64,000 nt of DNA from a virus, in UHGV virus genome UHGV-0307316. The stretch is one strand, 5' to 3'. The notes under the pieces are model-generated. The model was not told where the DNA came from. It saw only the letters and a list, made by a program, of their open reading frames with translations, and searched no databases. A program made the translations under genes and the position numbers. Each line of letters opens with the position of its first letter. Positions within the stretch are counted from its first letter, which is position 1. Of the stretch, positions 5,475 to 34,321 are shown one piece after another.

Positions 5475-6581
5475 ATGTTGACTAATTCTGAAAAAAGCAG
5501 ATTTTTCCTTGCTGACCTGACTGGTGAAGTCCAGTCTATCCCAAATACTTATGGGTATATTTCCAACTTAGGTCTGTTCCGTTCAGCACCAATCACCCAA
5601 ACTACTTTCCTTATGGACTTGACTGATTGGGATGTTAGCTTGCTTGATGCGGTAGACCGTGATAGCCGTAAAGCAGAGACTAGCGCACCTGAGCGTGTTC
5701 GTCAAATCAGCTTCCCAATGATGTACTTCAAAGAAGTTGAAAGCATCACTCCTGATGAAATTCAGGGTGTACGTCAGCCAGGCACTGCAAACGAACTGAC
5801 TACTGAAGCTGTAGTACGTGCTAAGAAGCTGATGAAGATTCGTACCAAGTTCGATATTACTCGTGAGTTCCTGTTTATGCAAGCTCTGAAGGGTAAAGTT
5901 GTTGATGCTCGTGGTACGCTGTATGCTGACCTGTACAAGCAGTTCAACGTTGAGAAGAAGACTGTTCACTTCGACCTTGACAACCCTAATGCTGACATCG
6001 ACGCTTCTATTGAAGAACTGCGTATGCACATGGAAGACGAAGCGAAGACTGGCACTGTAATCAACGGTGAAGAAATTCACGTAGTTGTTGACCGTGTGTT
6101 CTTCAGCAAACTGACTAAACACCCTAAGATTCGTGACGCTTATCTTGCACAGCAGACTCCGCTGGCTTGGCAACAGATTACTGGTTCTCTGAGAACTGGT
6201 GGTACTGACGGCGTTCAGGCTCATATGAACACTTTCTACTACGGTGGTGTTAAGTTTGTCCAGTACAACGGTAAGTTCAAAGACAAGCGTGGCAAGGTTC
6301 ACACTCTGGTGAGCATTGATAGCGTAGCAGACACTGTTGGTGTTGGTCATGCTTTCCCTAACGTTTCTATGCTGGGTGAAGCAAACAACATCTTCGAAGT
6401 GGCTTATGGCCCATGTCCTAAGATGGGTTATGCAAATACACTTGGTCAGGAACTGTACGTATTCGAATACGAAAAAGACCGTGACGAAGGTATTGACTTT
6501 GAAGCTCACTCTTACATGCTGCCATACTGTACTCGTCCTCAGTTGCTGGTAGATGTTCGCGCTGACGCCAAAGGTGGCTGA
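5475..6581 (+). CDS. Major capsid protein
   Basis: 368 aa ORF after protease/scaffold; codon usage typical of a highly expressed gene (cgt/ctg/aaa rich); size fits HK97-fold capsid proteins. Confidence 0.7.
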   Translation: MLTNSEKSRFFLADLTGEVQSIPNTYGYISNLGLFRSAPITQTTFLMDLTDWDVSLLDAVDRDSRKAETSAPERVRQISFPMMYFKEVESITPDEIQGVRQPGTANELTTEAVVRAKKLMKIRTKFDITREFLFMQALKGKVVDARGTLYADLYKQFNVEKKTVHFDLDNPNADIDASIEELRMHMEDEAKTGTVINGEEIHVVVDRVFFSKLTKHPKIRDAYLAQQTPLAWQQITGSLRTGGTDGVQAHMNTFYYGGVKFVQYNGKFKDKRGKVHTLVSIDSVADTVGVGHAFPNVSMLGEANNIFEVAYGPCPKMGYANTLGQELYVFEYEKDRDEGIDFEAHSYMLPYCTRPQLLVDVRADAKGG

Positions 6582-6601
6582 TAAATTTAGGAGGGTTATG
6601 A

Positions 6602-7051
6602 ATGTGTTATACAGGCGACCCAGCCAATAACCCTCTTGATAGAGTAAGAATCCTCTGCACAGACACTAATAATGATGAAATCCTTATTGAGCAGTCTGTG
6701 CTAGAGTGGTTCTATCTAGAATCTGGAAAGGATGAAAAGAAAGCAGCCATCAAAGCTCTTAAATATTTACTCTTTCAAGTAGCCAAGATGGGAGATGAGA
6801 AGGTTGGTGGTGTTTATTTACGTAACTCTTCCAGATTCAAATCTCTGAAAGCTGTTTATGACGACCTTGTTAAAAGCTCTGTTTCAGGACTACCCTATGC
6901 AGGTGGTATTAATCAGTGTGATATTGACATGCGTCGTCAGAATCCTTGCTCTGTCAAGAAATACACAGAATATGGTGATGCTGCCAGATACGAAGGCAGA
7001 GATTACTGCAACCGTGTTAATGGCGTATTTATTATCGAGCGAGATGAATAA
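6602..7051 (+). CDS. Head completion / neck protein (putative)
   Basis: Position between capsid and tail genes; tightly packed operon. Confidence 0.35.
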   Translation: MCYTGDPANNPLDRVRILCTDTNNDEILIEQSVLEWFYLESGKDEKKAAIKALKYLLFQVAKMGDEKVGGVYLRNSSRFKSLKAVYDDLVKSSVSGLPYAGGINQCDIDMRRQNPCSVKKYTEYGDAARYEGRDYCNRVNGVFIIERDE

Positions 7052-7533
7052 TGGTTAAAAGGGTTATTCACCCCGCGAGAGCAAAATTAGTCGGGGCTAT
7101 GAAGAACTTGCAAACGGCTAATGCTCAAGTTGGGTATTTTCAAGAACAAGGTCAACATAGCTCTGGTTTTTCTTATCCTGCTTTAATGTATTTACAAGAA
7201 GTTATTGGGGTTCCTTCAGCTTCTGGTAAAGTATATCGTAGGTTGTTTGAAATCACTATGATGCTAAACAAACAGACCTTGTTAGAGCAGACTAAGAAGA
7301 ATCTATATAAGCAACTTAGCAGTCTCAACACAGACCCTTCAAATACCTTAGAAGCATTTGCAAAGAATACTCAAAAGGTAATTAAAAGGGGTTTTGGTAA
7401 TTCTGCTATCCTCCCTCCTAACGCACCTTCCACAGTCAAGAAAAAAGGCTTTAACGCACCTCTTGTTGAGACAGGTGACTTAAGAGATAACCTTGCTTAT
7501 AAAATTTCTACTAAGAAGGGTATTAAAAAATGA
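7051..7533 (+). CDS. Head-tail connector protein (putative)
   Basis: Position; start overlaps previous stop. Confidence 0.35.
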   Translation: MVKRVIHPARAKLVGAMKNLQTANAQVGYFQEQGQHSSGFSYPALMYLQEVIGVPSASGKVYRRLFEITMMLNKQTLLEQTKKNLYKQLSSLNTDPSNTLEAFAKNTQKVIKRGFGNSAILPPNAPSTVKKKGFNAPLVETGDLRDNLAYKISTKKGIKK

Positions 7534-7931
7534 GACTCTTAAACAGACACAGCTTTGTAGTAAAGCGTAAAGTCTCTGAAGATGGTTATTATAATGATGA
7601 TGGTGATTGGGTAGCTTCACAAGATATTGTAGAGGTTAACTGTAAAGGTAATATTCAGCCATATATCAAAGGTTCTGTAAAGAATGGTACACAGATTGCT
7701 TTACCGGAAGGTATTAGGCTTACCGATACAAGAATCCTGTATACCACATATAAGCTTAGAACTTCAGATGATGTAGAGTGGAATGAGTCTGACATTGTTA
7801 TGATTGATGGTCATGAGTATGAAGTATTTATGACTATGGATTGGTCACAGCAATTAGCCCATACATCCCATTATGAATATATCATTATTAGAAGGGATAA
7901 AATGAATGCAGTTAGAAACAGCAGAACTTGA
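7530..7931 (+). CDS. Head-tail joining protein (putative)
   Basis: Position; overlapping start/stop. Confidence 0.35.
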   Translation: MRLLNRHSFVVKRKVSEDGYYNDDGDWVASQDIVEVNCKGNIQPYIKGSVKNGTQIALPEGIRLTDTRILYTTYKLRTSDDVEWNESDIVMIDGHEYEVFMTMDWSQQLAHTSHYEYIIIRRDKMNAVRNSRT

Positions 7932-8505
7932 AAAAGGTCTAGTTAGAACCTTAGTGGATGTTATTGGTCACAGATTAGCTCGTGATAAAAATAATAGACC
8001 AAACGTAATTAGAGCTTACCCTTCTGATAACTCAAATGACAAAGGTTTAAAACCTGACCAGCCATTTATTACCGTATATTGTCAAGATGCTGCAACACCT
8101 TATGGTTGGGTTCTTGATAAGTTTGTTGAAGATGATGTAGCTTGTTACAGAATCGCTTTTCAGATTCCTGTATTGATTACGGTAAATGGTAAAGGTGCTC
8201 ACAGTATTATGCTTGAGCTTAAACAAAGATTAGAGATGAGTTCAGTCAGAGATTTAATCCTTGAAGAAACAGGAGCTACAGTATTAGACACTGGAGCAAT
8301 CCCTAACGATTACACTTATCTCAATACAGATTTCGAAAATTCTGCGCCTCTTGTTGTAACTCTTGTAAAAAACTCAGTCCTGAAAGATGAACGTGGAAGT
8401 ATTATTGAGCGTGTCATTGTTGATGGTGAGTTGGTTTATGAAGAAGGGCAAGAGCCACCAGAATATACTATCCATCTAGATGTAGACTCCAAAGGGGTAA
8501 AATAA
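7906..8505 (+). CDS. Tail completion / neck protein (putative)
   Basis: Position directly upstream of putative sheath gene. Confidence 0.35.
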   Translation: MQLETAELEKGLVRTLVDVIGHRLARDKNNRPNVIRAYPSDNSNDKGLKPDQPFITVYCQDAATPYGWVLDKFVEDDVACYRIAFQIPVLITVNGKGAHSIMLELKQRLEMSSVRDLILEETGATVLDTGAIPNDYTYLNTDFENSAPLVVTLVKNSVLKDERGSIIERVIVDGELVYEEGQEPPEYTIHLDVDSKGVK

Positions 8506-9858
8506 ATGTGGAATCCAATTGTTAATGTAGATATTACATTGAACACCGCAGGAACTACAAGAGAAGGTTTTGGTTTGCCACTATTCTTAGCTTCAACAGA
8601 TAACTTTGAAGAAAGAGTGCGTGGTTATACTTCCTTAACTGAAGTTGCTGAAGATTTCGATGAGAATACTGCTGCATATAAGGCTGCTAAACAACTTTGG
8701 AGTCAGACTCCTAAAGTAACTCAGCTTTATATTGGTAGACGCGCTATGCAGTACACTGTATCAATTCCTGATGAGGTTACTGAGAGCACGGACTACTCAA
8801 TTACTGTAGCTGTCGGTGGGGGAATGTCACAACCATTCCAGTACACCTCACAAGGTGAAGATACTGCCGAGAATGTATTACAACAGTTTAAAACACAGAT
8901 TGAAGCTGACCAATCAATTAAAGATAAAGTTTCAGTCAATGTTACTGGTAGCAACGGTTCTGCCACAATGGTCATCTCCAAAGCTGGTGACAATGATTTC
9001 GTGAAGGTAACCACTACAGCACAAACTGTGTCTATTGCAAGCACAACTGCTGATACAGCGTCAACTGCTCTGGCAGCTATTGAAGCTTATTCTACCGACT
9101 GGTATTTCATTGCAGCAGAAGACAGAACTCAACAGTTTGTTTTGGCAATGGCTTCTGAGATTCAGGCTCGTAAGAAAATCTTCTTCACAGCTAACTCTGA
9201 TGTAGCAGCACTGCAAGGTACAGAATTAAATAGTGCAAATGATGTTCCAGCACAGCTTGCTAAGAGTATGTATACTCGCACAGTTTGCTTGTGGCATCAC
9301 ACAGCGGCAGAAGATTATCCAGAGATGGCATATATTGCTTATGGCGCTCCATACGATGCAGGGTCAATTGCTTGGGGTAATGCTCAGTTGACTGGTGTAG
9401 CTGCTTCTTTACAGCCAGCTAATAAGAGACCTCTGACAAGCATTCAGAAGTCAGCTTTAGATGTACGTCACTGTAACTTTATCGACCTTGATGGTGGTGT
9501 TCCAGTGGTTCGTAGAGGGATTACTTCTGGTGGGGAATGGATTGATATCGTCCGTGGTGTTGACTGGTTAGAATCAGACCTGAAAACTTCTCTGAGAGAC
9601 TTGCTAATTAACCAGAAGGGTGGTAAGATTACTTATGATGATACTGGTATTACCCGTATTCGTCAAGTCATTGAAACCTCTCTACAAAGAGCAGTCAACA
9701 GAAACTTCCTGTCATCTTACACAGTTAATGTTCCTAAAGCCTCTCAAGTTGCTTTGGCAGACAAGAAAGCTCGTATCCTGAAAGATGTTACCTTCGCAGG
9801 TATCTTAGCAGGGGCTATCTTGGATGTTGACTTGAAAGGTACAGTGGCTTACGAATAA
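8506..9858 (+). CDS. Tail sheath protein (putative)
   Basis: 450 aa ORF followed by a ~150 aa ORF, chaperone pair and tape measure: the canonical sheath-tube-chaperone-TMP order of contractile tails. Confidence 0.5.
   Translation: MWNPIVNVDITLNTAGTTREGFGLPLFLASTDNFEERVRGYTSLTEVAEDFDENTAAYKAAKQLWSQTPKVTQLYIGRRAMQYTVSIPDEVTESTDYSITVAVGGGMSQPFQYTSQGEDTAENVLQQFKTQIEADQSIKDKVSVNVTGSNGSATMVISKAGDNDFVKVTTTAQTVSIASTTADTASTALAAIEAYSTDWYFIAAEDRTQQFVLAMASEIQARKKIFFTANSDVAALQGTELNSANDVPAQLAKSMYTRTVCLWHHTAAEDYPEMAYIAYGAPYDAGSIAWGNAQLTGVAASLQPANKRPLTSIQKSALDVRHCNFIDLDGGVPVVRRGITSGGEWIDIVRGVDWLESDLKTSLRDLLINQKGGKITYDDTGITRIRQVIETSLQRAVNRNFLSSYTVNVPKASQVALADKKARILKDVTFAGILAGAILDVDLKGTVAYE

Positions 9859-11033: not shown

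Positions 11034-11034
<1 letters not shown>
10394..11034 (+). CDS. Tail assembly chaperone -1 frameshift fusion product (G-T-like); shift at 10750-10756
   Basis: Heptamer T_TTT_TTC at 10750-10756 in X_XXY_YYZ register of the 0 frame; -1 frame is open from the shift site through the 10795-11034 ORF, which ends 1 nt before the TMP start. Confidence 0.5.
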
Positions 11035-19143
<8,109 letters not shown>

Positions 19144-19145
19144 TA

Positions 19146-20318
19146 ATGGCAGTAGGTGAAATTCAAATTAGTGCCTTGCCTCAAGCATCCTTACCAATTG
19201 ACCTTAGTGATATCTTCCATCTTAAGCAGGGTATTGAGGATAAGAGGTGTACTCTTGAGCAATTACTTGCTCCACACGCAAGCCTAAGAAATAACCCTCA
19301 TGGTGTTACTAAAACACAAATTGGTTTAGATAATGTTATTAATGCTCTTCAGTTAGTCGCTGCAAATAACTTATCAGATATTGTTAATGTAGCTGAGGCA
19401 AGAGCAAATCTACAGATTATGTCTTCAGAAGAGGTTAATAACCTTGTCCAGCAACATATCAAGGACAAGAGTAACCCACACAATACAACTAAGGCACAGG
19501 TTGGTTTAAGTAATGTTCAGAACTGGACAACATCTAATCTGTATAACGAAGATGCAGATAAGTATGCTACAGCAAGAGCATTAAATAACTTGTACAAGGC
19601 TGTTCAGGCTTCTTATCCAGTAGGTACTATCCATCTTTCTATGAACTCTGCAAACCCTTCCACATACTTAATTTGTGGAGGTACTTGGGAGTTAGTTTCA
19701 AAAGGCAGGGCATTGGTTGGCTATGACTCTGATACAAGACCAGCAGGTTCTATATTTGGCGCTTCAACTGTCACTTTGTCAGTTAATAACATACCTCAGC
19801 ACTCCCACTCTGTGTCTCTTAGCGGTGGTGGTCACACTCATAATGCAACTGTGTCAATTTCAGCTTTTGATTATGGGACTAAGACTACAAACTCTTTTGA
19901 CTATGGGACAAAAGCTACTAACACAACTGGTAACCATACACACAGTGTGTCAGGTAACACTAGCACCAATGGTACTCACAACCATGATGTGTATCCTAGA
20001 GCAAATGATGGCTCTGGTAATGCTGTGGCTGACTCTGATGGTGGTGGTCCAAGAAGGACATCAAGGACTTCTAGTGATGGTGCGCACTCACACAGCTTTA
20101 ACGTCACATCTGGTGCATCAGGTGACCACAGCCACACGGTTGGTATTGGTGCTCACAGTCATACAGTTGGTATTGGTTCACATACGCATAGTGGCACTGT
20201 AACAGTTTCTTCTTCTGAACATACACATAGTGGCAATACAAATAGTGTTGGTGGAGGTCAGGCAGTTAATATTGAACAGCCATCCTTCGTACTGTATGTA
20301 TGGCAGAGAACAGCTTAA
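19146..20318 (+). CDS. Tail fiber protein (short paralog) with His-X-His C-terminal module
   Basis: N-terminal tail-fibre-type repeats (NPHGVTKTQIGLDNV / NPHNTTKAQVGLSNV); C-terminus SFDYGTK(T/A)TN repeats and HxH runs (GAHSHSF, DHSHTVGIGAHSHTVGIGSHTHSG) like T4 gp37-type metal-binding fiber tips. Confidence 0.7.
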   Translation: MAVGEIQISALPQASLPIDLSDIFHLKQGIEDKRCTLEQLLAPHASLRNNPHGVTKTQIGLDNVINALQLVAANNLSDIVNVAEARANLQIMSSEEVNNLVQQHIKDKSNPHNTTKAQVGLSNVQNWTTSNLYNEDADKYATARALNNLYKAVQASYPVGTIHLSMNSANPSTYLICGGTWELVSKGRALVGYDSDTRPAGSIFGASTVTLSVNNIPQHSHSVSLSGGGHTHNATVSISAFDYGTKTTNSFDYGTKATNTTGNHTHSVSGNTSTNGTHNHDVYPRANDGSGNAVADSDGGGPRRTSRTSSDGAHSHSFNVTSGASGDHSHTVGIGAHSHTVGIGSHTHSGTVTVSSSEHTHSGNTNSVGGGQAVNIEQPSFVLYVWQRTA

Positions 20319-20327
20319 TTTCTTTAC

Positions 20328-20348
20328 AGGGGCTTTATAGCCCCTTTT
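20328..20348 (+). terminator. Rho-independent terminator between the two fiber genes
   Basis: AGGGGCT-TTAT-AGCCCC hairpin followed by TTTT. Confidence 0.5.
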
Positions 20349-20364
20349 AAGAGGAAAATTTATA

Positions 20365-22713
20365 ATGGCAGATTACAAATTGAGTGAGCTAAACTCAATC
20401 GACACAATCCGTTCAGATGACCTTCTTCATGTCAGAGTTAAAAAGAGACCTAAAATGCTGGGTGATGAAGACCGTCGAATGACCTATCAAGATTTCTTAG
20501 CATCTTTTAAGCTTGAAAGATTTGTTCAGATTGCTGGTAGCACTATGACGGGTGACTTAGGAATTGTTAAGCTACTTTACGGTGGCAAGGCTGTATTCGA
20601 CCCCACAGGCTCTTCTGAGATTACTGTTGGTGATATTTTAAAGACTTTTAAAATCAACGCAAACGACCTTAAACTAACTATTGCAGACGCTTCAAGGTCG
20701 GCAACTGTTTATCATACTTTGAATAAGCCAAGCCCTAATGAACTTGGGATGAGAACTAATGAAGAGAATGACGCAAGGTATGCAAGACTAGCCGTGAATA
20801 ATACCTTTAGAGGTACTCAAGCTATCCTCTCTGACAATGGAGCGCTCATTATTAAAAATATCACTCAAGGTGCTCCACTCTATCTTCGTGGTCAAGATGC
20901 AGATGGTACTAACAGATGGTATCTAGGTAATGATAATAGGGGTACAAATAATCTTGTATTGAAGAATGTAAAGTCTGACGTTTCAATTGCTATTTTAGAG
21001 AATTTGGTGAAAGTCAACAGAACTCTTCAAATTGCTGGCCAAGTTCAGCCTTCAAGTTTTGCTAACTTAGATGCTAGGTATTTTACCCAGACAGCAGCTA
21101 ATCAGAGATTTGCGCAGTTAGCTGGTAATAACACTTTTACTGGTACTAACACTTTCTCTAATTTTGTTGCTAAGAAGAATGCTGAAGCCATCACTCTGCG
21201 AAATGTGGACACTGCTCCCTCTTTATATATCCGAGCAAGAAAGTCAGATGGGAATTATAAGTGGTATATTGGTAATGACGGTGATGAGAACATTTTAAAA
21301 ATCTATAACTATCTAACAGAAACACAAGTCTCACTAGGTAACACTATTGCCATGAGCAAAACAGTTCGAATTGATGGTCAAGTACAACCTTCTGATTGGA
21401 CTAACATTGATTCTAGATATATTCCGGCAGCCACTTTGAGTAATCTCCCTAAACTTAATGTTGCTAATACTTTCACAAATGTGCAGACTATTGTATCAGA
21501 TAATGAAGGTTTAGTATTAAGGAGCTTAACACAGGGACAGCCACAATATATCCGTGGTGTTGATACTGCGAATGTATCTAGGTGGTGGCTGGGCGTAGGA
21601 ACTGCTAATTCTAACGTGGTAACCTTGAGCAACAGCTTTTCAGGCACTCAAATTTCCCTAGAGCCAACATTGGTTAGTATGAATAAGAATCTGTATATTA
21701 ATGGGCAGGTTCAACCAAAAAATTGGTCTAACTTAGATGCTAGATACTTTGTTAAGACTCAGTTATTAAATCAATCTTTGATGACTGCATCTGTAGATAA
21801 TCTTGAAAACCCTTCAGCATTTAATCTTGGGTATTCAGGTTTTGTCAGAAACAACAATGTGACTAGTGGTCTGAAAGAGTTGGCAATTCATGTTGCTCAC
21901 TCTAGTAAGACTGCTGCACACGCAAGGGGTATCTCTTTTGTATACGGTTCAAACGGTTTGGCAACATTCACCTATGCCTATGACAAAAATGGTGACTATG
22001 CCGGAGAGGCACAGATTTACACAACTGATTTTAAACCAACCCCTTCAGAGATTGGTGCATATACTAAAGCAGAAACTGACCAGAAATTTGCAACAGCAAT
22101 TAGTGACTCTACAGACCTTAATAAAATCTATCCAGTAGGTATTGTAACTTGGTTTAACAGTGATGTTGACCCTAATACAGCACTACCTGGGTTAACTTGG
22201 ACGTATCTTAACAATGGTGTTGGTAGGACTATCAGGATTGCAGCAGCAGATGGTTCAGATGTTGCTACAACAGGTGGTTCAGACTCTGTGGTGTTATCTG
22301 TTGGTAACTTACCGTCACACACCCATAGTTTCTCTGCTACCACTTCATCTTTTGATTATGGTACGAAGAACACTAATAGTACTGGTGCTCACACCCACTC
22401 AGTTAGTGGTACTGCTGCATCTGCTGGGCAACACGCACACAGAATTTCACAGGGTGACAACGCTAACGTTCCATCAGGTAGAGTTGCATCTTCGAACTCT
22501 GCTCAGACCCATGTTGGTTGGACTGAAAATGATGGTGCTCACACCCACTCAGTTAGTGGTACTGCTGCATCTGCTGGTGGACATGCTCACTCTGTAGGTA
22601 TTGGTGCTCACAGCCACACAGTTAGTGGTAACACTGGTGGTACAGGCTCTGGTTCAGCATTTAGTGTTACTAACCAGTTCTACAAGTTAATGGCTTGGGT
22701 AAGAACTGCTTAA
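20365..22713 (+). CDS. Tail fiber protein (long paralog) with internal ~70-aa repeats and His-X-His C-terminal module
   Basis: Three degenerate repeats ending in LDARYF/IDSRYI; C-terminus SSFDYGTKNTNSTGAHTHSVSGTAASAG (duplicated), GHAHSVGIGAHSHTVSG. Confidence 0.75.
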   Translation: MADYKLSELNSIDTIRSDDLLHVRVKKRPKMLGDEDRRMTYQDFLASFKLERFVQIAGSTMTGDLGIVKLLYGGKAVFDPTGSSEITVGDILKTFKINANDLKLTIADASRSATVYHTLNKPSPNELGMRTNEENDARYARLAVNNTFRGTQAILSDNGALIIKNITQGAPLYLRGQDADGTNRWYLGNDNRGTNNLVLKNVKSDVSIAILENLVKVNRTLQIAGQVQPSSFANLDARYFTQTAANQRFAQLAGNNTFTGTNTFSNFVAKKNAEAITLRNVDTAPSLYIRARKSDGNYKWYIGNDGDENILKIYNYLTETQVSLGNTIAMSKTVRIDGQVQPSDWTNIDSRYIPAATLSNLPKLNVANTFTNVQTIVSDNEGLVLRSLTQGQPQYIRGVDTANVSRWWLGVGTANSNVVTLSNSFSGTQISLEPTLVSMNKNLYINGQVQPKNWSNLDARYFVKTQLLNQSLMTASVDNLENPSAFNLGYSGFVRNNNVTSGLKELAIHVAHSSKTAAHARGISFVYGSNGLATFTYAYDKNGDYAGEAQIYTTDFKPTPSEIGAYTKAETDQKFATAISDSTDLNKIYPVGIVTWFNSDVDPNTALPGLTWTYLNNGVGRTIRIAAADGSDVATTGGSDSVVLSVGNLPSHTHSFSATTSSFDYGTKNTNSTGAHTHSVSGTAASAGQHAHRISQGDNANVPSGRVASSNSAQTHVGWTENDGAHTHSVSGTAASAGGHAHSVGIGAHSHTVSGNTGGTGSGSAFSVTNQFYKLMAWVRTA

Positions 22714-22792
22714 TCCCTTGTTAACTGATTGTTAAGATGGTGTTAATATTCTTTATGGGTATTCTCACCATCTTGGCTGATGAGGTGATTAA

Positions 22793-22987
22793 ATGCCTAC
22801 AATCCTAGCAATTCTTCTAAAAAATCTAGGTAGCTTCTTCTGGAAACTCATTTTATCCCTTCTAAGTGAATACATGATTGAGAAAGTGTTCTTTAAGCTT
22901 GCAAGATATCTTGCGAGTAAAACAGACACACCTATTGATGATGAGTTCGTAGATAACTTAGAAAAAGCTTTTAAGGGGGAGAAATAA
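22793..22987 (+). CDS. Small hydrophobic protein (function unknown)
   Basis: 64 aa with hydrophobic N-terminal segment; follows tail fibers. Confidence 0.3.
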   Translation: MPTILAILLKNLGSFFWKLILSLLSEYMIEKVFFKLARYLASKTDTPIDDEFVDNLEKAFKGEK

Positions 22988-23359
22988 ATGAAGTGGCTAG
23001 AGGAAGCTTTTAAAAATAATATTGGTGCAATTGTAGTTGGTATTTTTAGTGTTATTGGGATGTATACCACCATGCAAGTTTCAAGTGGTAAACAAGAAGT
23101 GTCTGTCACAACAAAGTTACAGCAGCTAGATAATTATTCAAAAAGTAACTATTCAGCTATTCATGATTTACAGTCTGACATGAGATTGATTCAGCTAGGG
23201 ATGGAGAACCAGAAAGTTCAGTTAGAGAATGTTAAGGGCGAAAACGCAAAACTTACCAAAACTCTTGATAAATTCTCTGACAGTGTAAATAATCTGGCTC
23301 AATCAGTATCAGCCCTCCAAGCTATTACTGAGAAGAACACAAAGAATACTGAAAAATAA
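22988..23359 (+). CDS. Membrane-anchored coiled-coil protein (function unknown)
   Basis: N-terminal TM helix (IGAIVVGIFSVIGMY) then coiled-coil-like sequence; last gene of + block 1. Confidence 0.3.
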   Translation: MKWLEEAFKNNIGAIVVGIFSVIGMYTTMQVSSGKQEVSVTTKLQQLDNYSKSNYSAIHDLQSDMRLIQLGMENQKVQLENVKGENAKLTKTLDKFSDSVNNLAQSVSALQAITEKNTKNTEK

Positions 23360-23365
23360 AATTTA

Positions 23366-23396
23366 AGGCTCCCGTAAAAAGGAGCCTTTTTTGTTT
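23366..23396. terminator. Bidirectional rho-independent terminator at convergent junction
   Basis: AAGGCTCC-CGTAAAAA-GGAGCCTT hairpin flanked by A-run upstream and T-run downstream; sits between + block end (23359) and - block end (23396). Confidence 0.6.
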
Positions 23397-24295
23397 TACT
23401 TACCTACTGACAGAGGTGCTTCAATCTTCCCTGCATGTTGGTAGTTGTTAATGCCACCAATAAAATCACTTGCAGTGAGATGTTTTAGGTCACTTAAAGT
23501 GTTAAGTGGGATACCAATCTCAAAAGTTGGTGCATGGAACTCTTCATTGTTCATCAGTTCATAAACCTGCTTCATATGGTTCTGATAAATCTGAGTATCT
23601 CCAAAGACACCTATCAAATATCGTGGAGTGTATCCAGTCATCTTACAAAGGACTTCCAGAATAAAACCATAAGATGCAATGTTAAACGGAAGCCCTAAAA
23701 AGGTGTCTACAGAACGCTGATACCATTGTAAGTCAACTTCACCCTCGTTGGTGATATAAATCTGAAACAGAACATGACAAGGTGCTAAAGCCATTGAGTT
23801 TGCTGCAATATCTGCTGCATTCCAAGCGTTAACAAGCATGTAACGGTCTGTGATATCACCCTTCATCTTCGCTACTAAGGTCTCTAACTGGTCTACAACA
23901 CAACCATCATGACCCTCAAAGTTTCTCCACTGAACCCCGTAGATTCTACCACCTGCATCCTCTAACCAGTCTTGTTCAGAGGAATAATTAGAGCTTAACC
24001 AGCGTTTAAAATCATCTGACCAGATAGTCCAGCGTTCCCCATCATTTTCACCCCAAGTACGGTAACGAAGTTCACCAAGTTTATTCTCACCATTCAGGAA
24101 CCATAAAGCTTCCCCAATAACTTGCCGTGTAAACACCTGTTTAGATGTTAAGAGTGGGAAACCAGTTCGCATATCAAAACGAAACTGTGGTGGAGCAAAT
24201 GCAGAGATAACCTCTCCAGTTCGTGTAGTACGCAGTTCACCAACGGATAAAACATGGTTCAGGATATTTTTGTAACTCAAATCAGCTTGTGACAT
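23396..24295 (-). CDS. thyA: Thymidylate synthase
   Basis: N-terminal RTTRTGE motif and active-site PCH (ALAPCHVLFQ) in the translation. Confidence 0.85.
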   Translation of the reverse strand: MSQADLSYKNILNHVLSVGELRTTRTGEVISAFAPPQFRFDMRTGFPLLTSKQVFTRQVIGEALWFLNGENKLGELRYRTWGENDGERWTIWSDDFKRWLSSNYSSEQDWLEDAGGRIYGVQWRNFEGHDGCVVDQLETLVAKMKGDITDRYMLVNAWNAADIAANSMALAPCHVLFQIYITNEGEVDLQWYQRSVDTFLGLPFNIASYGFILEVLCKMTGYTPRYLIGVFGDTQIYQNHMKQVYELMNNEEFHAPTFEIGIPLNTLSDLKHLTASDFIGGINNYQHAGKIEAPLSVGK

Positions 24296-31079: not shown

Positions 31080-31595
31080 TCAACTTAGTTTTGCAAACTC
31101 TCCGTGGAGTTTTACAGCAGCTTCACAGTAAGCTTTATGGGCTTCTTCTTCCGTTGTGTATGTTCCTATATGTATAGTCTTACCATTATGGTTAATCTGG
31201 GCTACCCACTTACCAGACTTGCTTCTACTTGTGCCTTTTAAGTTTTTTGATGTTCTAGGTTGTCTCCTATTAGACATGTTCTGTTCTTTTGTGGCCTCTC
31301 TTAAATTGTTCCAAGCGTTATTCAAGCCATCTCCATCTTTGTGGTCAATGTGTTTATCAGGCCACTTGCCTGTCATCCAGAACCAAGCAATTCGGTGATT
31401 ACCTGTCCTGTATCCTAAAATCTGTGTGTGCATATACACACCAGACCTTGTGCGCTTAATTGCTCCGGCTTGGCTTCCAATAACCACCCTACTACTATGT
31501 GGAGGTCTACCAATCCATGTTAAGACCCCTGTTTCGGGGTCATAATCTAACCAAGACTTTAACTGTTCATGTGTGAATCCACAATCTCTCATCAA
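31080..31595 (-). CDS. HNH homing endonuclease with AP2-type DNA-binding domain
   Basis: HNH core IDHKDGDGLNNAWNNLREATKEQN; C-terminal AP2-like segment SKSGKWVAQINHNGKTIHIGTYTTEEEAHKAY; start abuts DNA polymerase stop. Confidence 0.7.
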   Translation of the reverse strand: MMRDCGFTHEQLKSWLDYDPETGVLTWIGRPPHSSRVVIGSQAGAIKRTRSGVYMHTQILGYRTGNHRIAWFWMTGKWPDKHIDHKDGDGLNNAWNNLREATKEQNMSNRRQPRTSKNLKGTSRSKSGKWVAQINHNGKTIHIGTYTTEEEAHKAYCEAAVKLHGEFAKLS

Positions 31596-34321
31596 TGTAC
31601 CTCATACCAGCTCTTACCAACCTTACCTGTGCCAGTTACAAGCGTCTCACTCTTCAAACCTAAATTCTTAGATGCCTGACCATACATCCAGTCAGTTATG
31701 GCTTTAACTTCTTGAGTCATACTTTCTGGGCATTCCCAACTGTTTTCATCGTGGTATGCCAGCAAAAGCCTAGCACCGATTGCTGGTTTTCGTCCATTTA
31801 ATTTTGTCAATCCTTCTTCACATGCTCTTCTACAAGCAAGATTAATTGCCTCATTTTGAATCTGAGCCTCTGAACCCATGAGCAAATAATTCAATAACTT
31901 ATGTGGAGATTTACACCACAACCAAGCTCCAGCAACCTTTACAAAACCACCTTTAGAGATTGCAGCAGTCTTACCAAATACCTCTTCAAGTGCCTTTTTA
32001 GTTGCTTTGTAGTCAGCTTCCAAGTCATCTAGCAGCTTTTTAATTTTAGGCAAACGAATAAAGTAAGTCTGTTTAGTCAGCGCACCTTCCTGAGTAGTTG
32101 CAGCTTTAATCGTCTTAGCAAACTTCTCATCACCTGCACCGAACAGCAGTGCATAGATACCATTCTTAGCTTTCTTACGACCCTTGCTAATCTCATGAAG
32201 AAGATTCTCATCCTGAGTAGCTCGACAAGTCAAGATGTCCTGCTCATCGTTCAAGTTAAAGTAAATACTGTTCAGTGTATGTGCATCAGTCCCTGAATAG
32301 ACAACGTACAGGTCATTCTCAGAGTCATAGCGAAGGTACTTATCAATCTCTGGGTTGAGGTACTCATCAAAGTGTTTACAGTAATAGCGTCCATCTTCTT
32401 GACGAATGAACTCAATTTCTTCTTTACCTTGCGTTACCGCTTTGGTGAAGTCTTTATCACCCATAAAGTTACAAAGAAGAACTAGCTGGGCTGAGTTCAT
32501 GTCTACAGAGACAACGTTAGTACCTTCCTCACAAATCCACACTGCCCTCATTGGTTCCCCATAGACAGCAGCACCAGACGGTACGTTTACAATACCATAC
32601 TGTGTCATACGTCCAGTTGAAGTACCAAACACCATTGCACCAGCACTAAGGCGACCATCAGGACGAATCTGGTTCAACCAACCTTTTTCATCATCCTTTG
32701 AGTTCTCAATAGTTCTGCGTCGGTGCATCAAAGTGTAGTATTTAGCAATCTTCTGTCCAAGCTCACCTTCAATCGTATCGTAAGATGATTCAGTAAGTTT
32801 TGGTGAAGTACGGATTAAGCAAGGCTCAAGCAAATCTGTGTACTTCTTCACAGACCAGTTATGCTCAATGTACTGGACGCCTTCGTGTTCAACATAACTC
32901 AAACCACACCGCTCAACCATTTCCTGCCACTTAGGATGCTTTGTAATCATCTTTTTATTGTCTTTGAAACGACAAACTTTGACAGGGCGACCATCAGAGT
33001 CTTTCTTGTAGTTCCAGTCATCTGGAATCCAACCAACTGATTTCAAGTAGTCTTTAACAACTGCTACCTGAGTCATACGAGAAACTTCAAACTCAATTGG
33101 TGTATATGGTGCATCAATCAAACCTGTGTAGCGACTTGACTCAAGTTCAAAGTGGTTAACAACGTGGCTGTTATAGTACTTCACAGTTTTGACTGTTTTT
33201 ACTGGCTTCCAGTCTTTGCATTTCTTACCAATCTTTGCGTTCAACTCATTGCAAATTGCACGAGCATCCTTCATTGCTACAAAGCCTTCCTTGTACTCTT
33301 CACCAGTTACAGAGTTGGTTGGTGTATAGCAATTCCTTTTTTCAATGTTAAAAATCTTTGTAGTTGGCTTACCAAATGGTTTGATTTCGTATGTCTGCAT
33401 CTCGCCATTACGTACCTGCTGACGATACTTTGTCTTAGGGTACTTGGTAATTCTTTTCAGTCCATCTGCATGACCAAATGTTTCAACATACTCATTCCAA
33501 GCTTTTGCAAACTCTTCTCCAGTGACTTTACCTTTGGTCTTAATAGTTGGAGGTAGATGTGGTTCAACCTCTGAAGCAAGCTCATTAGTCAACTTGTCAA
33601 GTTCCTTTACATGGAACTCCATAAGCTCTTTATCAGCTTTCCAACCATTGATAGCTTGTTGACTCATCCAGAAAGATGTTTCTTTAGCTCGCATGTAGGT
33701 TTCATAAGTGTCTATGCCACACTTCTTAAGCTTGAGATACTCATTATCAAGTGCCCGTTTAGTTTTGGCGTTAATACGGATATCTTCTACAACACGAGTG
33801 AAGATTTCTGCATTCCACACACCCCAATGTTCAATCTCTGGTTTACGAACACCAACACGAGCACCCCATGCAGCCAAGCCATGAGCACCTTTATAACCCT
33901 TTGGAGTTGGTCTATCCATCCACTGAACACGAGACTGGATAAGAGAATCCTGAAAGAAATTACTCCACGGCTTACACTTTGGATTATCAAAGTTCCATAA
34001 ATCCGGTGCAATGTGATTGAAAACCCACCAGTCATAACCTAGACCATTATGAATGCAAAGACGTTTTGCCTTTAACGCAAACTCAATACCTTCACGTAAG
34101 CCACCCTTAATGTACTTGGTATACTTGTGACCGAGGATAGGCTCATCTGTAAAGACCCATACAGGTGGCTCTTCATCGTCAGATTTATAGTCTGCGAAAG
34201 CCATTACGTGCACTTTAGTGAACTCAAGGAGTAAACCATCAGTTTCTGTATCACCAACTAAATGTAAGTTTTTAAAATCTACGTTTTCCATTTTTACTCC
34301 CTCTAAAATCATTAACCTCAT
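31592..34321 (-). CDS. DNA polymerase, family A (T7 gp5-like) with 3'-5' exonuclease domain
   Basis: Exo I VGDTETDGL; Pol motif A VSVDMNSAQLVLL; motif B KKAKNGIYALLFGAG; motif C AYHDE. Confidence 0.9.
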   Translation of the reverse strand: MRLMILEGVKMENVDFKNLHLVGDTETDGLLLEFTKVHVMAFADYKSDDEEPPVWVFTDEPILGHKYTKYIKGGLREGIEFALKAKRLCIHNGLGYDWWVFNHIAPDLWNFDNPKCKPWSNFFQDSLIQSRVQWMDRPTPKGYKGAHGLAAWGARVGVRKPEIEHWGVWNAEIFTRVVEDIRINAKTKRALDNEYLKLKKCGIDTYETYMRAKETSFWMSQQAINGWKADKELMEFHVKELDKLTNELASEVEPHLPPTIKTKGKVTGEEFAKAWNEYVETFGHADGLKRITKYPKTKYRQQVRNGEMQTYEIKPFGKPTTKIFNIEKRNCYTPTNSVTGEEYKEGFVAMKDARAICNELNAKIGKKCKDWKPVKTVKTVKYYNSHVVNHFELESSRYTGLIDAPYTPIEFEVSRMTQVAVVKDYLKSVGWIPDDWNYKKDSDGRPVKVCRFKDNKKMITKHPKWQEMVERCGLSYVEHEGVQYIEHNWSVKKYTDLLEPCLIRTSPKLTESSYDTIEGELGQKIAKYYTLMHRRRTIENSKDDEKGWLNQIRPDGRLSAGAMVFGTSTGRMTQYGIVNVPSGAAVYGEPMRAVWICEEGTNVVSVDMNSAQLVLLCNFMGDKDFTKAVTQGKEEIEFIRQEDGRYYCKHFDEYLNPEIDKYLRYDSENDLYVVYSGTDAHTLNSIYFNLNDEQDILTCRATQDENLLHEISKGRKKAKNGIYALLFGAGDEKFAKTIKAATTQEGALTKQTYFIRLPKIKKLLDDLEADYKATKKALEEVFGKTAAISKGGFVKVAGAWLWCKSPHKLLNYLLMGSEAQIQNEAINLACRRACEEGLTKLNGRKPAIGARLLLAYHDENSWECPESMTQEVKAITDWMYGQASKNLGLKSETLVTGTGKVGKSWYEVH

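Follow-up and report, generated by a model that had tools for sequence, protein, structure and literature searches.

The window analysed here is a stretch of 64,000 nucleotides (nt) of the virus genome UHGV-0307316, and the locus under study, at positions 19146-22713, consists of two tail-fibre genes. They correspond to two neighbouring, co-oriented open reading frames (ORFs) on the + strand, 19146-20318, coding for 390 amino acids (aa), and 20365-22713, coding for 782 aa; their products are indicated as short tail fibre (STF) and long tail fibre (LTF), respectively. The 3.6 kb fibre region matches 234 Felixounavirus records, almost all of them from Escherichia or Salmonella Felixounaviruses, and the best-matching record is ULIM9 (92.6% identity, 100% covered). 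Judging from sequence similarity, the window is that of a Felix O1-like myovirus, genus Felixounavirus. The two fibre genes and the gene just upstream are listed below; one relative used throughout for comparison is Bas63 (Escherichia phage JohannRWettstein), another is VpaE1.

18841-19143, + strand: LTF platform protein, 100 aa, Bas63 gp025 orthologue (phmmer against the PDB: 9ndy_S, 'LTF platform protein (gp025)', E 3.1e-64, full length; phrog_4141)
19146-20318, + strand: STF gene, 390 aa, orthologue of Bas63 gp26 and VpaE1 gp74 (phrog_2097, tail fiber, E 4.5e-135)
20365-22713, + strand: LTF gene, 782 aa, orthologue of Bas63 gp27 and VpaE1 gp75 (phrog_4277, E 0, full length)

In Bas63, the platform protein gp025 is the attachment point of the long fibre (PMC12609058; baseplate PDB 9NDY). 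The wedge 2 gene, also upstream of the fibres, gives a full-length match to Bas63 gp023 (9ndy_H, 1032 bits), and the order wedge 2, wedge 1, platform, STF, LTF is identical in Bas63 (gp23-gp27), Felix O1 (ORF73-77), VpaE1 (gp72-75) and ULIM9. The upstream matches to Bas63, together with the identical gene order, therefore identify the two fibre genes as orthologues of Bas63 gp26 and gp27. Over its full length STF is 75% identical to Bas63 gp26, 98% to ULIM3 and 95% to VpaE1; the values for LTF are 63% with Bas63 gp27, 91% with ULIM9 and 73% with VpaE1. In the Felix O1 RefSeq record, the short fibre is labelled 'Putative tail fiber protein GP37'. With a probability of about 90%, these are the genes for both receptor-binding fibres carried by a Felixounavirus virion. 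That only one of the two proteins would be present in virions is not borne out by relatives, which carry both: in cryo-electron microscopy of Bas63, the virion carries the two fibres, and a collar, a needle marked by His-X-His (HxH) motifs and a head are seen in either of them (PMC12609058).

Both proteins end in the same module, as had been proposed in an earlier, sequence-only reading of this stretch: the C-termini align, and the shared part is longer than described there, extending for about 200-245 residues from a collar starting with YPVG (around aa 146 in STF, 586 in LTF) to a common end, W(Q/V)RTA. STF 157-341 and LTF 589-753 are 37% identical (BLASTP, E 5e-27). Either tip also aligns with the crystallized tip of T4 gp37 (2XGF): STF 146-362 with chain positions 18-228 (E 1.5e-28), LTF 647-761 with chain positions 94-218 (E 2e-14). 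T4 gp37 itself contains the SFDYGTK(x)TN motif. No third gp37-type tip is present in the window.

The register of the HxH motifs, read from a multiple alignment with T4 gp37 785-1026, is the same in the three proteins. All seven T4 motifs (883, 915, 929, 966, 980, 989, 998) have a counterpart in STF, at 219, 264, 278, 314, 328, 337 and 346, and the first six have one in LTF, at 652, 676, 690, 726, 740 and 749; the equivalent of T4 998 is absent from LTF (6 out of 7). Spacing around the head is 14/37/14/9/9 in T4, 14/36/14/9/9 in STF and 14/36/14/9 in LTF. When residues are shuffled, 1.4 HxH motifs are found on average in STF and 0.39 in LTF, and the observed counts, nine and six, are reached in none of 20,000 shuffles. 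In T4, seven irons are aligned along the needle, H929 and H931 being essential iron ligands, and tip residues between 932 and 959 contact lipopolysaccharide (LPS) and OmpC (PMC6957217). Homology to 2XGF covers collar, needle and head, and the gp37-type HxH character assigned to both tips by the sequence-only reading is, at the level of these alignments, correct; the motifs it quoted are likewise all present at the positions mapped by motif search. The segments of STF are the following.

19293-19517, + strand: N-terminal shaft with two NPHxxTKxQxGLxNV copies, aa 50-64 and 110-124 (motif search; many tail-fibre PHROGs match aa 36-145)
19581-19799, + strand: collar, aa ~146-218, of the T4 gp37 D10 / gp10 C-terminal type (Pfam Gp10_C PF21939, aa 154-269; aligns to 2XGF from chain position 18)
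19800-19985, + strand: ascending needle strand, aa 219-280, with HxH at 219, 230, 264 and 278 and two FDYGTK units (motif search, alignment to T4)
19986-20084, + strand: head segment, aa 281-313 (DVYPRANDGSGNAVADSDGGGPRRTSRTSSDGA), between the innermost HxH pair, aligned with T4 gp37 tip 932-965
20085-20315, + strand: descending needle strand, aa 314-361, with HxH at 314, 328, 337, 346 and 359, and C-terminal return to the collar, aa 362-390 (alignment to T4)

The two copies of the shaft motif are NPHGVTKTQIGLDNV (aa 50-64) and NPHNTTKAQVGLSNV (aa 110-124), in agreement with the claim that the short protein has N-terminal repeats of its own. With 64 bits, the Gp10_C match is above the Pfam gathering threshold (27 bits). 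The two FDYGTK units, AFDYGTKTTN and SFDYGTKATN, occupy aa 240-259, and GAHSHSF is found at aa 312-318. The head is presumed to be the region where the chain reverses and contacts the receptor. Two of the nine HxH motifs are extra with respect to T4: one, at 230, lies together with one FDYGTK unit in an insertion (aa ~225-249), the other, at 359, on the returning strand. Because of these two motifs, the STF needle should, from its sequence, be longer than that of T4 by about two metal layers. A count of nine is common to Felix O1 and most relatives, while in Bas63 the STF features seven and the motifs nearest the head are replaced. Across 40 diverse homologues, conservation is 90% or more for most HxH histidines, namely H219/221, H230/232, H264/266, H314/316 and H346/348, H316 being invariant.

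LTF is composed of a longer shaft, a pre-collar domain and a tip.

20782-21747, + strand: three shaft repeats of 100-113 aa (aa 140-239, 240-352, 353-461), with ends QVQPxxxxN(L/I)D(A/S)RY (Pfam gp37_trimer PF20744, three stretches, E 1.8e-54)
21805-22101, + strand: pre-collar domain, aa 481-579, like part of phage Mu tail fibre S (phmmer against the PDB: 8ju3_A residues 335-430, E 4.1e-4)
22120-22317, + strand: collar, aa ~586-651 (alignment to STF and T4 collars)
22318-22440, + strand: ascending needle strand, aa 652-692, with HxH at 652, 676 and 690 and one SFDYGTK unit (aligns with T4 HxH 883, 915, 929)
22441-22539, + strand: head segment, aa 693-725 (RISQGDNANVPSGRVASSNSAQTHVGWTENDGA), flanked by HxH 690 and 726
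22540-22710, + strand: descending needle strand, aa 726-751, with HxH at 726, 740 and 749, and C-terminal return, aa 752-782 (aligns with T4 HxH 966, 980, 989)

Each shaft repeat is closed by xDxRY, at 235, 348 and 457. Compared unit against unit by BLASTP, the repeats are pairwise 34-44% identical (E 1e-17 to 1e-29), though self-BLASTP of the whole fibre proteins yields no off-diagonal matches. Of the repeats previously described as three units of about 70 aa, number and ending are thus retained, while the length is to be corrected to 100-113 aa. On either side lies one degenerate unit related to the shaft repeats (aa 40-139 and aa 462-575): with these, the three repeats fit the five beta-helix repeat domains of Bas63 (PMC12609058). 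The collar was assigned by alignment to the STF and T4 collars because Gp10_C, at aa 586-696, scores only 22.1 bits, under the cut-off of 27. In the needle, SFDYGTKNTN lies at aa 662-671 and GHAHSVGIGAHSHTVSG at aa 739-755; the descending part is recognized by Pfam Phage_fiber PF03335 (32.5 bits, cut-off 20). The segment AHTHSVSGTAASAG, reported earlier as duplicated, does occur twice, at aa 675-688 and 725-738: the copies are the outgoing and the returning needle strands around a 33-aa head, and do not form an additional domain.

The presence of a shared module in two adjoining genes had led the sequence-only reading to propose a modular duplication at the locus, which the following comparison does not sustain. 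Measured on one scale, identity between the STF and LTF tips amounts to 35% (131 bits), against 39% (141 bits) for the STF tip with T4 gp37; the tip of T4 is therefore no more distant from that of STF than the tip of LTF is. At the DNA level, the two genes share no exact match longer than 17 nt. Homologues of the tip module at E <= 1e-5 number 1,879, including Ounavirinae of Yersinia, Pectobacterium, Erwinia and Hafnia and enterobacterial prophage fibres. Because of the identity values and the short exact match, the tips appear to be old paralogous lineages of a widespread module, or separate acquisitions, rather than the outcome of a recent local duplication. It is unlikely that one fibre gene was recently duplicated in tandem in the Felixounavirus lineage, with tips still homogenised mutually: genes that adjoin, are co-oriented and share a module would be in keeping with it, but the tip identities and the 17-nt match are not, and the N-terminal two-thirds of STF and LTF are unrelated in sequence.

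Exchange between the two fibre genes of one genome, which would also favour such a duplication, appears to have occurred in Felix O1 (NC_005282; STF 5901-7067, LTF 7118-9466). There, STF and LTF have heads that agree at 94% over 31 aa, and their DNA is the same for a run of 51 nt that extends into the descending strand; overall the two Felix O1 tips are 51% identical, compared to about 35% in the window phage. The sequences suggest that a head cassette was exchanged between the two genes.

Variation among relatives was evaluated as nucleotide identity along both genes, in comparison with eight relatives. The best-conserved parts are the N-termini, the collars and the extreme C-termini: in all eight relatives identity is at least 86% for STF aa 1-180 and at least 81% for LTF aa 1-150, and no value is below 87% for the LTF collar or below 93% for the LTF C-terminus. 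In the heads (STF aa 241-330, LTF aa 691-720) shared types alternate with others, essentially unalignable, for which identity falls to 30-50%; the LTF shaft repeats likewise drop to 30-50% in several relatives. The STF head type of the window is common to ULIM9, ULIM3, VpaE1, EcoM2 and TH10 (88-91%), and cannot be aligned with those of Bas63, KhF2 and Felix O1. The LTF head, of a 'RISQGDNANV' type, is common to ULIM9, ULIM3, EcoM2, TH10, ev035, ASO1A, ev78 and ULIM8, while Bas63, VpaE1, KhF2 and Felix O1 feature LTF heads of other types. LTF itself is a mosaic: aa 1-240 are 99-100% identical to ULIM3; aa 391-540 depart from ULIM3 and agree instead with ULIM9 (98-100%); in the tip, aa 661-750, the likeness to ULIM3 returns (96-98%). 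The mosaic heads found among relatives, here and in published work (PMC12609058, PMC4690856), agree with the tip being a hot spot of modular exchange and a determinant of host range.

Head sharing seems to extend beyond the genus. The head of the VpaE1 LTF (KM657822, 2220-4574) is 88% identical to that of T4 gp37 (aa 932-965), and its tip 54% identical to that of T4: from the sequences, this looks like cassette sharing between Felixounavirus and T-even phages. VpaE1 and T4 both use the LPS of E. coli B (PMC4690856). Records named 'VpaE1_ev', considered as possible laboratory-evolved tip-swap lines, were discarded as such, being natural infant-gut isolates (PMC6969025).

At the borders of the LTF head, the longest exact repeat within the gene is found.

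22383-22427, + strand: 45-nt perfect direct repeat, copy 1, encoding GAHTHSVSGTAASAG, in the ascending strand
22533-22577, + strand: 45-nt perfect direct repeat, copy 2, in the descending strand, 150 nt (50 codons, in frame) downstream of copy 1

In eight relatives with the same LTF tip type the two arms are identical at 37-43 of the 45 positions, with longest exact runs of 15-41 nt. Over the nine phages sharing this tip type, arms differ by 4.1 mismatches on average within a phage and by 4.7 between phages; a permutation test reaches this in 705 of 20,000 cases, on samples which are not independent, three of the nine phages being identical. The signal for within-phage homogenisation of the arms, that is for concerted evolution, is weak. 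A scan of IMG/VR with a 29-nt core returned three contigs, two with two copies at 150-nt spacing and one with a single exact copy; no three-copy arm-head variants were detected by it. It is a rather improbable proposal that intragenic gene conversion maintains the arms and that these serve as portable handles for swapping, deleting or duplicating the 33-aa head cassette. A similar idea exists for T-even phages, whose adhesin genes would recombine more readily through conserved segments with His motifs. The 45-nt repeat, the nine-HxH STFs of most Felixounaviruses and the matching Felix O1 heads are not found in the papers describing VpaE1, Sf14 (a Shigella phage, discussed below) and Bas63.

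A model for the function of the two fibres may be drawn from T4 gp37 and Bas63. By homology to these, each fibre would be a homotrimer, with its conserved N-terminus docked on the baseplate: STF on wedge 2, LTF on the gp25-type platform encoded just upstream. The tip would consist of a collar and, beyond it, a needle of six strands: each chain would run outwards, turn round in a small head and come back. At each level, the HxH motifs of the three chains would jointly hold one metal ion (Fe2+ in T4), so that the predicted number of metal sites is nine for the needle of STF and six for that of LTF. Contact with the receptor may be made by the head, flanked by the innermost HxH pair, and would involve LPS: Felixounavirus receptors are LPS, not proteins (PMC8594841, PMC4690856). 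Since the heads of STF and LTF are unrelated in sequence, the two fibres probably read different LPS features. LTF would bind first, reversibly, and STF second. Host range would evolve through mosaic recombination rather than by a programmed switch, and the conserved collar, the HxH needle segments and the boundaries of the shaft repeats may be the points at which head and shaft cassettes are exchanged.

Several observations weigh against this picture. The AlphaFold2 (AF2) model of the STF monomer, obtained with a 40-sequence alignment, is poor: mean pLDDT (predicted local distance difference test) is 61.9, needle blocks range from 36 to 65 and only collar blocks exceed 76. HxH runs flanking a 33-aa head and the conserved C-terminal W(Q/V)RTA agree with the expected layout, but the AF2 monomer needle is too poor for its topology to be read. 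In the Bas63 orthologues, a hairpin of this kind is visible at the resolution of domains (PMC12609058). A Foldseek search of the same model against the PDB recovers the collar only (2fkk, C-terminal domain of T4 gp10, E 0.16, prob 0.97), and not 2XGF. Such a model is expected, because the chain would fold only as an intertwined, metal-bound trimer, and it neither supports nor contradicts the argument from homology. Furthermore, T4 gp37 needs the chaperones gp38 and gp57A, and no gp38 homologue is detected in the window by tblastn of T4 gp38 (best E 0.22): folding must therefore differ in that respect. The extra HxH motifs of STF, 230 and 359, are without T4 counterpart, and metal binding by them would be an extrapolation. 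The order of binding, LTF then STF, is suggested only by analogy with T4, as also by the authors of the Bas63 study.

The likeness of STF to gp10 raises a further alternative, namely that the short protein belongs to the baseplate, like T4 gp10, its His-rich tail being a structural spacer and not part of a receptor-binding fibre. Gp10_C is indeed the strongest Pfam match of STF, a search of PDB sequences finds T4 gp10 (E around 1e-4), and the best Foldseek match of the STF model is a gp10 domain. The gp10 match, however, is limited to the collar (aa 143-220), while the far stronger match to the gp37 tip spans aa 146-362, including needle and head; the D10 collar of gp37 itself shares its fold with gp10, gp11 and gp12 (PMC6957217), and the Bas63 orthologue is a 430-angstrom fibre (PMC12609058). 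The alternative is accordingly very improbable, and STF is better regarded as a receptor-binding fibre.

Finally, the sequence-only reading had suggested a possible host-range switching locus. A programmed switch, with genes or tips either expressed in alternation or physically exchanged through a site-specific event (inversion or recombination, like that of the Mu G and P1 C segments), is effectively refuted: two adjoining fibre genes with homologous C-terminal modules, and HxH-coding segments recurring as direct repeats in both (family D1, 8 copies), would suit it, but both genes are on the same strand, in a block ending at a terminator (see below) and devoid of alternative exons; inverted repeats in 18500-23600 are at best 15-26 nt with 77-87% complementarity (the longest, 26 nt, at 77%) and flank no cassette; no invertase or recombinase gene adjoins the fibre genes; and both Bas63 fibres are on the virion simultaneously (PMC12609058).

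The two fibres may be compared with a number of described systems. Bas63 is alike in architecture: gene order is the same, the fibres are similarly made of an N-terminal baseplate-binding part, a shaft and a gp37-type collar, needle and head, and LTF carries six HxH motifs in both phages. Besides the STF motif count, Bas63 differs in both heads and in LTF shaft repeats 2-5, which are other cassettes. A count of the di-histidine motifs and their comparison with 2XGF are already given in the Bas63 paper (2025), as is a map placing genus-wide hypervariability in tips and beta-helix repeats (PMC12609058). With T4 gp37 (D10-D11, 2XGF), homology extends over collar, needle, head and return strand, and includes SFDYGTKxTN, the iron-ligand HxH motifs in register and G964, conserved two positions before the first descending HxH. 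In contrast with T4, whose long fibre is built of four proteins, the fibre here is a single protein; STF has two more HxH motifs and one more FDYGTK unit, LTF lacks the seventh HxH, and the head sequences are unrelated to that of T4. T4 uses OmpC plus LPS, whereas Felixounavirus receptors are LPS (PMC8594841, PMC4690856), and the T4 gp38 gene lies immediately downstream of gp37, while the window holds no gp38 homologue.

In VpaE1, gp74 aa 146-362 and gp75 aa 584-780 were both reported in 2015 as homologous to the T4 gp37 adhesin; the two are discussed there as tail fibre proteins, with reference to a virion-protein figure, and a conserved N-terminus, a variable C-terminus and a variable middle region are described (PMC4690856). 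The VpaE1 STF, 95% identical, has the head type found here, while its LTF, 73% identical, bears a T4-type head in place of the 'RISQGDNANV' one. Shigella phage Sf14 (2025; Mooglevirus, Ounavirinae), with gp52 and gp53, displays two fibre types, folded back along the sheath (PMC11821841). According to the published description, it resembles the present phage in having a gp37-like tip on the longer fibre and single-protein fibres with no Mu-type chaperone (PMC11821841), although it belongs to a different genus. The Mu G segment (S/S', U/U', Gin) and the P1 C segment (Cin) also place two receptor specificities side by side, and LTF aa 481-579 resemble part of the Mu fibre protein S (8ju3, E 4e-4); unlike in Mu and P1, inverted repeats, an invertase and opposed exons are missing here, and the fibres would be made and mounted together, not alternately. 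The core finding, gp37-type tips on two Felixounavirus fibres, is thus already published, real but ordinary.

Fibre tips would decide which LPS types, and hence which E. coli and Salmonella strains, are open to a Felix O1-like phage; phages of this kind are used in diagnostics and considered for therapy. To the known variety the window adds one natural mosaic LTF allele, of ULIM3-like, ULIM9-like and again ULIM3-like segments, and the residue-level map of the head cassette limits could guide fibre-swap engineering.

As to the surroundings, baseplate genes lie upstream of the fibre genes; two small ORFs, followed by thymidylate synthase and dihydrofolate reductase, lie downstream. The small ORFs, both on the + strand (22793-22987, 64 aa; 22988-23359, 123 aa), are found directly 3' of LTF in every relative examined. 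Both feature a hydrophobic N-terminal segment and belong to families of unknown function (phrog_402, phrog_4038); the second resembles coiled-coil-type families weakly, and an Rz-like spanin very weakly (E 0.0086). They could be lysis or fibre-assembly factors. A hairpin follows them.

23365-23388, no strand assigned: bidirectional terminator-like hairpin, closing the + strand structural block after the two small ORFs (from the sequence)

Elsewhere, no tRNA genes or Rfam families reach threshold in the 64-kb window (1-64000). An HNH endonuclease gene (31080-31595, - strand; phrog_99, E 8.8e-64) abuts an ORF of 909 aa (31592-34321, - strand); the neighbour of an HNH endonuclease gene in Felix O1 is the DNA polymerase gene. 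Arrangements of this kind are ordinary for mobile endonucleases. The tape-measure gene (11034-13355) contains a perfect 93-bp tandem duplication at 12646-12837 (2.1 copies, 100% match, no indels), equal to 31 codons in frame, and its product is 773 aa long, versus about 742 aa in Felix O1. In all of the 25 best relatives, the 501-nt query region spans 407-408 nt, so that the duplication is absent from them. If the duplication is real, and not an assembly artefact, and if the length of the tail depends on that of the tape measure, the ruler would be longer by about 31 residues.

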